DNA from: a virus
Lineage: Duplodnaviria > Heunggongvirae > Uroviricota > Caudoviricetes
Virus record (IMG/VR): IMGVR_UViG_2522572021_000013
Reading direction: 5' to 3' (one strand)
Length of the DNA stretch: 39,698 nucleotides
Made by a program: the position numbers. Positions 27,001 through 30,000 of the stretch are shown piece after piece. How positions within the stretch are numbered: position 1 is the first letter of the stretch; each line of letters starts with the position of its first letter.

Positions 27001-30000
27001 TCCATCAGCAGGTGAGCCCCGCTTTCCACCATTTCAGGAGGATGCTCAAAAATCACCGGCAGAAAGTGCGGATCATGAATTTTGCCGTCACGGACATCCC
27101 GGGCGTACTGCAGTTTCTGCCTGAACACCCCGGCAGGCGGTTCATTCGACTGGGTGGTTGTGTACACCACAAACCCTTCCGGACGTGAAGCCAGCCCGCC
27201 GATGGCTTCACGTAGCATGTCTTCCGCTTTGTACTGCTTGCCAAACAGCCACAGTTCATCAATCAGTGTCCCCACGGACTTGATACCGGACACCGTATTC
27301 GGATCGGCTGCCACCACCTTCAGGGTGGTGTCCGTCACCCGATGGGTGATGGTCCGGATATGTGTCTGCACCTGACAGAGGTCATCCAGATCATCGTCCC
27401 GTCGTACCATATCCCTGGCAGGGTTGAAGGCGTTAGCCGCCACCTCCACGGTCGGGGCCAGAATGGTGTAGCCCGCCGCCTGCCGCCAGTTCAGTAACAG
27501 CGCCGTCATCATGATCCCCGCGGCCAGCGTGGACTTACTGTTTTTCTTGGGGATAAGGATAAACACTTCCTTGATATGGCGAACACCGGTCTGCGCATCG
27601 TAGGAGCCAAACAGGGCCGCCACCAGGTCAAACACCCACGGTGCACAGGACTCCCCGAATGTCGGGCTACCCGGTGCATCCACAATCCGCAGTTGTTTAA
27701 AAATCGCCAGTGCATGTGCAGCCTGGTCCGGATAAATCGGAGCCGGAATAATCGACAGCCCCTTTTTCAGGCGCTCTGCCCAGTCCGGGCAGGCTGTGCT
27801 CCATACAGGTATCATCCGTTGCCCTCATTATCGTTATTCACCACCAGTCGGGGTGGCGGTGGCACCGCAAAACGGTTAGCCGCTTTTTTCGCCGCGTCAC
27901 CTTTTGCCGATTTTTTACCGGCATCGCCTTTTTTATGGTGTGTGAACTGCGCCAGTCGCCAGGCCGCATCCAGTGCCAGTTTCGGGTCAATTATCAGGTT
28001 TTCCACCAGGATCTGCCCCATAGCTTTCACCGGATCGGGAAGACCATCCTCCATATATTCAATACCATGAGATATCACCGCGGGCGGAGGCATCTCCGGA
28101 TTTTTTTCGTCCGGCTGTGGTATTGCAGCCACCTCACGGCGACGGGGTTTATCCTCCTGCTCTGATTTTTTCTGCCGGTAAACAGGAACCTCATCCACCT
28201 CCACCGTTTCGCACTGTTTACGGGCTATAAACGCGAGCACCTCCGGATCTTTTGCCAGCTGCGAGCCTTTAACCCTGGCGGTCTTCGCCGAATAACCAGC
28301 GGCAATGGCTGACGCTGTTTTGTTTTTCCCGGACATGAGCGCCAGCGCAAATTTTCGTTTTTGCGTTGTCAGCACAGCCTCCTCCCGGGTCCAGAACGCA
28401 CTCAGCCGGGTATGGTTCAGCCCATTTTTCCCGGCGTCTCATGCCGCAAATGTTAACTGCTGCCTGGTTAACATTTGCTGAAAAAGCCAGTTAACATTTT
28501 TTTCGCACAACAAACTGAATAATAAAGATAAAAACCGAAAAAATGCCCGGGCAGCCAGTTAACATGTTAACTGGCCTGAAACAGGAATTTTTTCTCTGCA
28601 TGAGACGGGGGGCGGTGTCCGGAGCGATCGTTTTTTACGCCGGATGATACCCCCCCGCTCGGGTTACAGTCCGATGATGTCGTCCGCTCTGCCACTACCT
28701 CCGGACACCTCCGGCAGCGTCGGGTCCGGCATACCACCCGCCGCTTCACGAGCAGACTTTTGTCGATGGCATTCGGTACAGAGCGTCCAGAGATTCGTCT
28801 CCTCATTACCACCACCGAACTGAAGTGCAATTCGGTGATCGAGTTCACTGTCACAGAGGTCAACCACACGACCACAGAGACAGCACTGTCCGGCATCCCT
28901 CAGCCAGATATGACGCTTGAGGGAAACACGTGCACTGCCACTGACACGACGCTGTTCACCCTTCAGAATATTCACCCGTCGGGTATTCAGTGTTTTGATT
29001 CTGCTCTGGAGTGTACGAAGCTCAGCCATGTAAAATCCCCGTCATATGGCAATCAGTAAAGGAAATAAATATGTCATCGAAAAACCGGACCCGCAGAACC
29101 ACAACCCGCAATATCCGTTTCCCCAATCACATGATTGAACAGATCAATATCGCCCTTGAACATAAAGGTTCCGGTAACTTTTCAGCGTGGGTTATTGAAG
29201 CCTGCAGGAGAAGGCTGGCAACAGATGCAACGCATCTGCGTCCGGCCAGCATGACAAATAACGAGAAATGAACGTTCGGTTACAGGAGCAGGTACCCACT
29301 GTCCTCCAACAATATTTCATCTTCATACCCGGCGGAACAAGACTTACCCAGCCGGAATGTACAGAATAACAACAGAGTGATAATTAATTTCTGATGAAAT
29401 AATCAGGGTGCAGAAGGACTAAAGATAAACGTTTTCTTCACGCCTTTACGCGGCCTGTCCTTCTCAAATCGCCATTTTGCCATCGCCTTTACAACCTGCT
29501 CATCAAACAGATGGTGCGGCTCTGAACGGATAAACTCAATTCGGGTGACAGTACCATCAGCACCAATATCAAACTTCACATCAACCCGTCCCTTTATATA
29601 ATTTGCCGCTGCATAGGCCGGATATTGTGGTAATGCCTTAACCAACTGTCGGGGCATATCTGTTTTATGTTGCGTACAGCCCATAACCAGAGAAGACAAC
29701 AAAATAATTAACGGAAGATTTCTTTTCATTTTCATTCCCGGCACAGATAAGAATAAGTCTTATTCTAACAATGCCACCCTGTCGGCCATCAATCCTCTGC
29801 TTAATGGCAACGACAATTATCCGACTTAAATCACAAATCAGACACATGACATAACAGGTCTTGCGAGGTAACACATCGTCCGGTTTCTTCCACCATCGCA
29901 CCGAACCAGCGACCATGAGGGGACAACGCCGCGCTCCGTTAACGCGGTAAACCCCGGTGTGTATCGTTTTTGATTATCCCCGCACACTCGCGCAGAGGAG

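Follow-up and report, generated by a model that had tools for sequence, protein, structure and literature searches.

HNH, DUF3950 and TonB_C lipoprotein genes at the lysis/packaging junction of an E. coli lambdoid prophage: separate modules and a possible TonB-box decoy

The window, a 39,698-nucleotide stretch of viral DNA, is identical to positions 2741835-2781532 of E. coli O145:H28 RM13514 (NZ_CP006027.1), which makes it a decayed lambdoid prophage with btsS on one side and yohO on the other. The signs of decay are frameshifts in both the portal gene and J and IS elements in the early region; other conversion genes in the same prophage are nleA and lom. Between 28664 and 29744 lie three genes, all of which are already annotated in RefSeq (Table 1). 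These are an HNH endonuclease gene and a TonB_C lipoprotein gene on the minus strand and a DUF3950/YlcI-YnfO gene on the plus strand, the last of which an earlier note on this DNA, in reporting the same three genes, had called an RHH gene. Their placement between Rz/Rz1 and terS/terL, which is the Rz-to-terminase moron slot, also agrees with that note. Rz and Rz1 make up a complete spanin pair upstream of the lipoprotein cassette, and the terminase large subunit shares 23% identity with HK97 gp2 over 490 aa (E 2e-12). The DUF3950 gene had been called the only plus-strand gene in a 25-kb block; it is indeed the sole annotated plus-strand CDS from 6053 to 34410, but the block spans 28 kb.

Table 1. 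Features of the lysis/packaging junction and its surroundings in the window.
Feature	Position	Strand	Basis
Terminase large subunit, HK97 type	26154..27815	-	Pfam TerL_ATPase, TerL_nuclease
Terminase small subunit (terS)	27812..28375	-	Pfam Terminase_2; phrog_641 E 6e-68
HNH-terS spacer, putative cos region, 288 bp	28376..28663	.	Conservation, record origin, folding
Five-copy GTTAACAT array, both orientations	28450..28575	.	Motif count
22-bp perfect palindrome, part of the GTTAACAT array	28554-28575	.	
HNH endonuclease gene, 121 aa	28664..29029	-	Pfam HNH E 7.5e-7; phrog_589 E 8e-45
DUF3950/YlcI-YnfO protein gene, 66 aa	29071..29271	+	Pfam DUF3950 E 4e-20; NCBIfam YlcI_YnfO_N
Variable low-GC cassette (moron) with the TonB_C gene	29262..29878	.	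BP-4795 comparison, GC
TonB_C lipoprotein CDS, 108 aa, WP_000828070.1	29403..29729	-	RefSeq
TonB C-terminal domain, residues 26-104 of 108	29418..29654	-	Equivalent to E. coli TonB 153-231
Possible own promoter, extended -10 TGTTAGAAT	29746..29770	-	Read by eye
Rz	30068..30526	-	Pfam Phage_lysis E 9e-50
Rz1, inside Rz	30130-30315	-	Pfam Rz1 E 1.7e-21

The HNH protein retains an intact motif on reading of its sequence, made up of C49xxC52, H65, N79, C84xxC87, and H88. Its gene adjoins the HK97-type TerL, in the same position as HK97 gp74, and is absent from prophages with a Nu1/gpA-type terminase. Phage HNH genes that adjoin cos and the terminase are a described class (PMC3592412), and HK97 gp74, in this arrangement beside an HK97-type terminase, stimulates cos cleavage (PMC9410871). 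That arrangement argues against counting the HNH gene, which the earlier note placed in an accessory cluster, as a dispensable accessory. The likeness to gp74 extends to a length of about 120 aa, an HNH motif with a CxxC...CxxC zinc site, and a gene that is directly upstream of cos/terS and paired with an HK97-type TerL. The two proteins differ in that no sequence similarity is detectable outside the motif (E 0.077), and the functional link between them is therefore drawn from position and terminase type. Searches against the PADLOC defence models gave weak, generic nuclease matches only. By analogy with gp74, the HNH protein most likely assists the terminase in cos cleavage as a cofactor and is not the product of an accessory gene. 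In such a packaging machine it would work with the HK97-type TerS and TerL to cut concatemers at cos in the HNH-terS spacer.

The spacer itself is 94-98% conserved across 94 phage records and folds as single-stranded DNA with a z-score of -5.0. Numbering of the related phage record Lys8385Vzw also starts within it, with the coordinate origin at 28604/28605 of the window. The spacer also holds, within 122 bp, five of the seven copies of GTTAACAT in the window, where 0.84 copies are expected and none of 100 shuffles reached seven. From position only, the array is likely a terminase recognition (cosB-like) element, and a putative cosN may be placed near 28598-28624. The earlier description of the genes as next to cos is plausible from the motif array and the Lys8385Vzw origin.

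The DUF3950 gene is conserved, runs antisense to the late operon and lies close to the putative cos. Residues 1-50 of its product are conserved while the tail is variable, and an AF2 model of the monomer has an extended N-terminus followed by helices at 19-32 and 37-55 (pLDDT 72). The protein had been called an RHH protein. In an hhalign comparison with P22 Arc the strand and helix A fall in register, but only at E 0.016 and a probability of 2.8%. The top Foldseek matches (TCP domain, ParD2, ArtA) are of RHH type, each of them with E > 3. A Pfam search gave no RHH match even at E 10, and DUF3950 was the only family returned. Sequence and profile searches of the PDB gave no match, nor did the PADLOC defence models, and literature searches found nothing relevant to the function of DUF3950. 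An RHH fold is plausible on this evidence, and the gene product would probably be a dimeric DNA-binding protein of RHH type. Within the DUF3950 family, the K-12 proteins YlcI (DLP12) and YnfO (Qin) are also encoded antiparallel to packaging genes, on their upstream side and at a distance of a few hundred bp. They differ in their C-terminal tails and in their neighborhood, which in K-12 is the Nu1-type nohD/nohA with no HNH gene.

The three genes had been taken together as a single accessory cluster, and the nearby palindrome named as a site on which to test the RHH protein. Each of the three is found without the other two in other prophages. In BP-4795, HNH and DUF3950 are present and TonB_C is absent; DLP12 and Qin have DUF3950 with nohD/nohA and neither of the others; and in the Nissle and APEC prophages TonB_C is accompanied by neither HNH nor DUF3950. 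The genes are three independent modules at the lysis/packaging junction and not a functional cluster. Nothing about the HNH and DUF3950 genes is unusual for a phage of this type. One regulated unit, in which the RHH-like protein binds the palindrome and controls the HNH gene, the lipoprotein gene or both, could appeal to the divergent DUF3950 and HNH genes with their 41-bp gap and to the plausible RHH-like topology. It is nonetheless highly improbable given this separate occurrence of the genes and given that the palindrome is about 500 bp off, beyond HNH, within a motif array placed like cosB. A role for the palindrome in terminase recognition is more likely than one as an RHH operator.

The longest ORF of the lipoprotein gene spans 29403-29744, and the likely CDS within it is the one annotated in RefSeq. 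A domain search bore out the TonB_C call, with a Pfam TonB_C match at E 5.8e-15, above the gathering score, and a TIGR01352 score of 56.5 bits against a cut-off of 27.1. Besides TonB_C and TonB_2 there were no Pfam matches to the lipoprotein, including none to Lambda_Bor or Llp/Cor, and none to the PADLOC defence models. The domain aligns without gaps to TonB chains in the PDB (phmmer, E 3e-16 to 2e-15) and is identical to E. coli TonB at 31 of 79 residues (39%). The matched TonB segment is the exact one crystallized on BtuB and FhuA. The AF2 model of the domain has a pLDDT above 90 throughout and superposes on 2gsk_B with a TM of 0.92 and an rmsd of 1.0 Å (Foldseek). Over the TonB of the BtuB:TonB and FhuA:TonB complexes, the TM is 0.91-0.92 and the rmsd 1.0-1.1 Å. 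All significant fold matches are to TonB-family C-terminal domains (TonB, FusB), followed by weaker ones to HasB and TolA domains, and the BFVD viral structure library gave no significant match. Residues 96-105 of the model form the equivalent of β3, which in TonB is the strand paired with the TonB box (PMC11658791).

At its N-terminus the protein has a signal peptide, MKRNLPLIILLSSLVMG, followed by the Cys of the lipobox (LVMG-C, Cys18) with Thr at the +2 position, and only about 8 residues link Cys18 to the domain. The lipobox fits a PROSITE-type pattern, and the earlier lipoprotein call is upheld by conservation of its Cys, which is invariant in alignment A6 and found in 12 of 14 distant relatives; none of the relatives has Asp at +2. 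The protein is accordingly predicted to be an outer-membrane lipoprotein. It has neither the N-terminal transmembrane anchor of ExbB/ExbD coupling nor a Pro-rich spacer, and it reaches 60-73 bits in the full-length TonB equivalog models, where the cut-offs are 265-448.

The TonB_C gene sits in a swappable cassette: phage BP-4795 has the conserved flanks but, in place of the cassette, about 210 bp that are unrelated to it. The GC content of the cassette is 41-45% and that of the flanks 52-60%. The slot is shared by three prophage backgrounds with different terminases, and the gene is carried by 1616 of 5426 complete E. coli genomes (~30%), which include STEC, ExPEC, APEC, and Nissle 1917. Comparison of the window allele with the Nissle-type allele gives a dN/dS of 0.12; the gene is under purifying selection, and it is intact although the prophage has decayed. 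The earlier note had put the lipoprotein at the position lambda uses for bor. The slot is correct, but the gene does not replace bor, as iss/bor adjoins the commonest E. coli allele.

This shared slot raises the alternative of a Bor/Iss-like envelope virulence factor, concerned with serum resistance, adhesion or peptidoglycan binding, for which the TonB_C fold would be a mere scaffold. The products of bor and iss are likewise small outer-membrane lipoproteins encoded between Rz and cos/terminase, the TonB_C gene directly adjoins iss in the ExPEC, APEC, and Nissle prophages, and the window prophage carries the nleA and lom conversion genes. Bor and Iss have no sequence relationship to the window lipoprotein, however, which matches TonB families only, and bor/iss is found on the opposite strand whereas the TonB_C gene is on the late strand. 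The residues conserved in the family are those of the TonB core, and the full β3 edge strand is kept. The function would also be redundant where iss co-occurs, and many E. coli genomes carry the two genes next to each other, as separate neighbors in the Nissle and APEC prophages. We consider a Bor/Iss-like role quite unlikely. A spanin-like lysis accessory has even less to recommend it and is very improbable: the phrog_1267 match (E 2e-42) carries the label 'Rz-like spanin' and the gene comes after Rz/Rz1 on the late strand, but a complete Rz/Rz1 pair is already there. The Pfam Rz1 match belongs to the ORF inside Rz, the lipoprotein has no similarity to Rz1, and homologues occur at chromosomal loci without lysis genes, so that the PHROG label is most simply an annotation by position.

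As for transcription, an extended -10 element upstream of the lipoprotein gene is a possible promoter of its own, judged from the sequence, with a predicted start site near 29755. A consensus promoter scan found no minus-strand promoter, and no terminator was found between Rz and the lipoprotein gene. The 7-1-7 palindrome GAATAAGaCTTATTC overlaps the possible promoter and matches the Fur consensus at 13/19 positions (29746-29764), a score no better than that of 16 other sites in the window and not significant. An allele of 74% identity keeps a 16-nt core, ATTGTyAGAATAAGAC, but not the palindrome. A Fur box or operator upstream of the window gene was rejected on these two grounds.

The protein is a member of an unnamed subfamily of small Enterobacterales lipoproteins, about 105-135 aa in length, in which a signal peptide and lipobox Cys are combined with one TonB_C domain. 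It fits their motifs YPxYAxAN, SEPxHLFD, and KWRFE (alignments A5 and A6). Related loci were retrieved with a 6-sequence alignment, and in a crude NJ tree without bootstrap the prophage alleles group inside the lipoprotein clade, apart from true TonB domains. Relatives in Serratia, Erwinia, Klebsiella, and Raoultella are found in chromosomal, non-phage contexts. The homologues have strong Fur boxes at 4-45 nt upstream, with matches of 17/19 in Serratia and in a Sodalis prophage, 16/19 in Erwinia, 15-16/19 in Klebsiella, and 14-15/19 in Raoultella; of 500 shuffles, only 0-3 score as high. The E. coli prophage alleles, unlike these relatives, have no significant Fur box. Literature searches, including by RefSeq accession, found no paper on a prophage TonB-like lipoprotein.

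The lipoprotein could on these grounds promote or modulate the iron-starvation response, with the prophage copy acting as a fitness moron that helps the lysogen under iron limitation and not as an exclusion factor. Possible modes of action include holding or presenting exposed TonB boxes, organizing transporters, or linking the outer membrane to peptidoglycan. Such a role is in keeping with the strong Fur boxes of the homologues, with the chromosomal setting of several of them, with the clustering of prophage alleles in the lipoprotein clade, and with the prevalence of the gene in siderophore-dependent pathotypes. No mechanism is known, however, by which an unenergized TonB domain fixed in the outer membrane would aid transport, and the sole known experimental precedent for free periplasmic TonB domains is inhibition. 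Fur control would be equally logical for a decoy needed when transporters are derepressed, and the E. coli prophage alleles are without a significant Fur box. An iron-starvation factor is unlikely, if well short of negligible.

The best-supported of the mechanisms proposed for the lipoprotein is that of a TonB-box decoy. The evidence is in keeping with the earlier suggestion that TonB boxes could be engaged by a TonB C-terminal domain once it is exported. Through its β3 strand the domain would pair with TonB boxes, whether those of TonB-dependent transporters or those of group B colicins on their way in, and the lipoprotein would thereby compete with the real, energized TonB. This competition would make it harder for phages such as T1 and phi80, for colicins, and for microcins to enter by the TonB-dependent route, either in the lysogen or late in infection by way of the late transcript. 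Periplasmic TonB fragments are reported to inhibit the TonB system in vivo, a dominant-negative effect that needed overexpression (bioRxiv 10.1101/2020.01.05.895219). The phage lipoproteins Llp and Cor, with their action on a TonB-dependent transporter, also speak for a decoy, as do the swappable cassette, the slot shared by three prophage backgrounds, the prevalence of the gene, and its purifying selection. Whether the phage itself uses a TonB-dependent receptor is not decided by the C-terminus of J, which is 96% identical to J of VT1-Sakai and 58% identical to J of lambda.

Several observations weigh against a decoy. A constitutive block of TonB would cost the cell iron and B12 uptake, yet ExPEC, APEC, and Nissle 1917, in which the gene is common, rely on siderophores. 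The strong Fur boxes of the chromosomal relatives also point to a role in iron starvation that is not necessarily inhibitory. A fuller version of the decoy reading has the host mimic tethered to the outer membrane, where it would give broad protection from TonB-dependent phages, group B colicins, and microcins or would tune iron uptake, and has lambdoid phages recruiting it from a Fur-regulated chromosomal lipoprotein family of Enterobacterales. That version is possible but somewhat unlikely. For the locus as a whole, the best explanation combines a packaging HNH protein, an RHH-type DUF3950 protein, and a TonB_C decoy moron, a combination that we hold tentatively and at a little less than an even chance.

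If the decoy is real, a very common and unstudied prophage gene would alter the response of E. coli to TonB-dependent phages, which bears on phage therapy and typing. The response to colicins and microcins would be altered as well, with effects on gut competition, as would that to siderophore-antibiotic conjugates and to host iron limitation. It would also show clearly how a phage can take a fragment-like copy of a host machine and use it for competitive inhibition, a strategy different from that of the receptor-specific Llp and Cor. Separately, judging from the Fur boxes of the chromosomal relatives, the iron-starvation response of Serratia, Klebsiella, Raoultella, and Erwinia appears to include a member that has been overlooked.

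Among the closest known systems, the C-terminal domain of E. coli TonB (residues ~150-239; PDB 2GSK, 2GRX, 1U07) has the same fold. The YP motif and the residues that match F180, G186, F202, W213, and F230 are conserved in the window protein, and β3 is present. It differs from TonB in having Leu at the position equivalent to Q160, in its predicted lipid anchor in the outer membrane where TonB is held in the inner membrane, and in that it cannot be energized by ExbB/ExbD because it has no transmembrane helix and no Pro-rich spacer. The engineered TonB fragments (33-239, 103-239, and 122-239) are likewise exported C-terminal domains uncoupled from the energy source, and the reported outcome was loss of siderophore transport. 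Those fragments are laboratory-made, soluble, and overexpressed, while the window lipoprotein is natural, shorter, prophage-encoded, and predicted to be lipid-anchored. Llp of T5 and Cor of phi80, N15, and HK022 are also small phage lipoproteins, found in the inner leaflet of the outer membrane, and target a TonB-dependent transporter from within the periplasm. Their fold is unrelated, with no Llp or Cor structure among the Foldseek matches, and they bind FhuA specifically and act allosterically. A mimic of the TonB domain would instead recognize the TonB box, a generic element, and could affect a wide range of transporters.

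The window is a 100% match over its 39,698 bp to E. coli O145:H28 RM13514 (NZ_CP006027.1, 2741835-2781532) and contains a decayed lambdoid prophage that is integrated between btsS and yohO. Frameshifts affect the portal and J genes, and ISEc20 and one IS3-family element break up the early region. The C-terminus of J shares 96% identity with J of the Stx1 phage VT1-Sakai. At one prophage end, past the tail fibre genes, lies the gene for the effector NleA. The three genes under study all sit at the junction between Rz and the terminase genes, as the earlier note had placed them, and both genes and domains are already annotated, the RefSeq product names being "HNH endonuclease", "YlcI/YnfO family protein" and "TonB family protein". 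Between 6053 and 34410 no annotated CDS other than the DUF3950 gene is on the plus strand, which upholds its lone orientation but not the 25 kb given for the surrounding minus-strand block. Within the lysis cassette, an antirepressor gene and a 43-aa ORF separate the lysozyme gene from Rz, an arrangement shared with phage BP-4795, which also retains the DNA of an unannotated 80-aa ORF that overlaps the end of Rz.

Features of the prophage and of loci with related lipoprotein genes (L0xx, fetched loci; positions internal to each)
Feature	Position	Strand	Remarks
Decayed parts	1-6700, 33166-39698		
nleA	4514-5755		
terS/terL	other flank of three genes		terminase genes
15-nt inverted repeat	28430-28444, 28598-28612		brackets the motif array
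Motif array	28450-28575		five motifs in 122 bp
Perfect palindrome	28554-28575		22 bp; array member
HNH gene	28664-29029	-	121 aa; Pfam HNH E 7.5e-7; phrog_589 E 8e-45
DUF3950 gene	29071-29271	+	66 aa; Pfam DUF3950 E 4e-20; NCBIfam YlcI_YnfO_N
Cassette left boundary	29225-29271		inside 3' end of DUF3950 gene
Cassette	29262-29878		~617 bp
TonB_C lipoprotein gene	29403-29744	-	longest ORF, from GTG; Pfam TonB_C E 5.8e-15, above gathering score
Leu33 codon	29627-29629		108-aa lipoprotein
Candidate 80-aa ORF	29838-30080	-	phrog_6954 "Rz-like spanin" E 1.6e-16
Rz / Rz1	upstream flank of three genes		Pfam E 9e-50 / 1.7e-21
Insertion in lysis cassette	30538-31459		antirepressor gene and 43-aa ORF
KilAC-domain antirepressor gene	30764-31459		
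Fur box, Serratia and Sodalis prophage			17/19
Fur box, Erwinia			16/19, overlaps TATAAT
Fur box, Klebsiella			15-16/19
Fur box, Raoultella			14-15/19
Fur box, L016	4900-5000		
Fur box, L017	4950-4985		
Fur box, L018	1603-1630		
Fur box, L014, L012, L022, L008-L011	just upstream of 5001		
Fur box, L013	~15 nt before ATG		
iss and TonB_C genes, Nissle 1917	L025 4233-5333		adjoining
iss and TonB_C genes, APEC O18	L026 3733-4833		adjoining
TonB_C and MlrA-type genes, Raoultella ornithinolytica	L008 5004-8320		~2 kb apart

The most distinctive of the three products is the lipoprotein, whose TonB C-terminal-like domain, first read from the sequence, is borne out by the Pfam profile search. Its translation probably starts from the ATG at 29729, the start also given in RefSeq, as this codon is preceded by GGA and is the sole ATG kept in a diverged allele. 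Cys18, which follows MKRNLPLIILLSSLVMG, is the first residue of the mature protein. The Lol sorting rule predicts membrane destination from the residue at +2, and as the lipobox cysteine is conserved (without exception in close relatives, and in 12 of 14 distant ones) and none of the relatives has Asp at +2, an outer-membrane location is predicted. After a linker of about eight residues, the protein aligns without gaps to E. coli TonB 153-231, matching TonB chains in the PDB with E values of 3e-16 to 2e-15 (31 identities over 79 residues). The domain is modelled by AF2 at pLDDT > 90; the model superposes on TonB from the BtuB complex (2gsk_B, TM 0.92, rmsd 1.0 Å) and from the FhuA complex (2grx_C, TM 0.91, rmsd 1.1 Å), and includes the equivalent of β3, the strand that TonB uses for TonB-box pairing (PMC11658791). 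The protein lacks both the membrane anchor and the proline-rich spacer found in TonB and scores far under the cut-offs of full-length TonB models; it thus has the end of TonB that binds receptors but not the part through which energy is received. Leu33 aligns with TonB Q160, a position occupied by Tyr or other residues in other alleles of the lipoprotein, and in TonB itself Q160L is reported to restore activity when the TonB box of FhuA or colicin M is mutated (PMC11658791). The family to which the lipoprotein (29403-29729) belongs, phrog_1267, is labelled "Rz-like spanin" in PHROG, which would imply a role in lysis. With a TonB_C domain in the protein and a full Rz/Rz1 pair beside it, the label was probably assigned by position, and we regard a lysis role as very improbable.

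The gene lies in a variable cassette of low GC content (41-45%, against 52-60% in the flanks), in place of which BP-4795 carries unrelated sequence. A search of 5426 complete E. coli genomes gave homologues in 1616, 415 with a copy of at least 90% nucleotide identity, mostly STEC, and 1201 with an allele about 74% identical, including Nissle 1917 and APEC O18. Prophages with the latter allele have the order essD-rrrD-rzpD-iss-TonB_C-terS(Nu1)-terL(gpA), and a relative in a Sodalis prophage follows holin-lysozyme-Rz-TonB_C-...-gpA terminase. The earlier note had put the lipoprotein at the position of lambda bor. It does share the bor/iss slot, which could suggest a Bor-like role in the envelope or in virulence, but iss and the TonB_C gene are neighbors, so the latter is not a bor substitute, and such a role seems improbable to us. 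In Nissle 1917 and APEC O18 the neighbor iss is a serum-survival gene, and this DLP12-like prophage also carries an ompC-like porin gene, which brings to three the outer-membrane conversion genes in a single late region. A dN/dS of 0.12 between the two E. coli alleles (dS being saturated) and an intact reading frame despite prophage decay indicate that the lipoprotein is under selection.

An exhaustive search returned 4903 proteins at E < 0.001, the closest matches covering the full length being lipoproteins of 105-135 aa. The Raoultella, Klebsiella, and Serratia copies are found at ordinary chromosomal loci, such as near lacI/lacZ or dsbB-nhaB, and in a crude NJ tree the prophage alleles group with small lipoproteins, apart from true TonB domains. 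When upstream regions were scored by matches out of 19 to GATAATGATAATCATTATC, with 500 shuffles as background, relatives outside E. coli showed strong Fur boxes 4-45 nt upstream of their start codons, at scores reached by 0-3 of 500 shuffles. The family therefore probably belongs to the iron-starvation response, and the boxes suggest a regulon member that has not been described. A positive or modulatory role in iron uptake would suit such regulation; we consider it unlikely for the phage protein, though less so than the Bor-like role. No significant Fur box was found in the E. coli prophage alleles (window 13/19, at background level; Nissle allele 11/19), whose regulation seems to have changed relative to that of the relatives. 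As the gene lies on the late strand and no terminator was found after Rz in the window, it should be transcribed together with the late genes. About 30 nt upstream of its start, a conserved stretch, ATTGTyAGAATAAGAC, looks like an extended -10 and may be a promoter of its own. The Raoultella ornithinolytica gene lies near a gene for an MlrA-type regulator (Pfam MlrA domains). In the window, a truncated "transcriptional regulator" fragment adjoins yohO, beside which mlrA/yehV lies in K-12; the shared proximity is probably coincidental.

Both the HNH and the DUF3950 gene are usual in phages of this type. TerL belongs to the HK97 type (E 2e-12 against gp2, with 23% identity across 490 residues), and in HK97 the equivalent spot, just before cos and gene 1, is occupied by the gene for the HNH protein gp74, which promotes cos cleavage in vitro (PMC9410871). 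HNH genes adjacent to cos and terminase have been described as a class marked by an H-N-H motif and a [CxxC]2 zinc site (PMC3592412); the residues in the window protein are C49xxC52, H65, N79, C84xxC87, and H88. No sequence similarity to gp74 was found, so a packaging assignment depends on context; the absence of the HNH gene from prophages with Nu1/gpA-type terminases counts in its favor. The 288-bp spacer between HNH and terS is 94-98% conserved across 94 phage records and holds five GTTAACAT motifs in both orientations, against 0.84 expected per whole window. The set includes a perfect palindrome, and the array is bracketed by an inverted repeat. The related record Lys8385Vzw has its coordinate origin at window position 28604/28605, beside a G-rich stretch. 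In lambda the order is cosN, cosB, Nu1, and in the direction of the late genes the G-rich site, repeat array, and terS resemble this layout. We infer that cos lies within the spacer and that the palindrome is a putative terminase recognition site, the array probably being the recognition region of this phage group.

The DUF3950 protein is near-invariant over residues 1-50 among E. coli relatives, while its tail varies because the cassette boundary falls at the 3' end of its gene; the tail changes with whatever is inserted downstream. In its AF2 model (pLDDT 72), two helices follow an extended N-terminus. The top Foldseek matches are without exception of RHH type (TCP domain, ParD2, ArtA) at E > 3, hhalign aligns TRNIRFPNHMIEQINIALEHKG with the strand and helix A of P22 Arc (E 0.016, probability 2.8%), and the Pfam profile search gave no RHH family. 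Of the "divergent RHH protein" first proposed, the orientation therefore stands and the RHH fold is a reasonable guess and no more. Nor do the three genes form one accessory cluster, as each is also found without the others. BP-4795 has HNH and DUF3950 genes and lacks the lipoprotein gene; DLP12 and Qin of K-12 have the DUF3950 genes ylcI and ynfO, antiparallel to the Nu1-type nohD/nohA and about 390 bp upstream of them, and lack HNH and TonB_C genes; the Nissle 1917 and APEC O18 prophages have the lipoprotein gene alone.

The lipoprotein is best described as a predicted outer-membrane lipoprotein moron of prophages that uses a host-mimic domain and is very common in E. coli genomes. We found no paper on it, no match among defence-system models, and no counterpart of its model in the viral structure library. 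The best supported reading, which we hold tentatively and at somewhat less than an even chance, is that of a decoy or exclusion protein: once anchored at the outer membrane, its TonB C-terminal domain would bind TonB boxes in competition with energized TonB. Against this, a constant block would cost siderophore-dependent strains iron uptake, the Fur-regulated relatives on the chromosome point to a physiological role, not necessarily an inhibitory one, and the precedents for a decoy relied on overexpression. These precedents are two. Exported TonB fragments (33-239, 103-239, and 122-239) have been reported to act in vivo as inhibitors of TonB-dependent transport (bioRxiv 10.1101/2020.01.05.895219), and FhuA is the target, on its periplasmic side, of the phage lipoproteins Llp and Cor (bioRxiv 10.64898/2026.03.26.714494).
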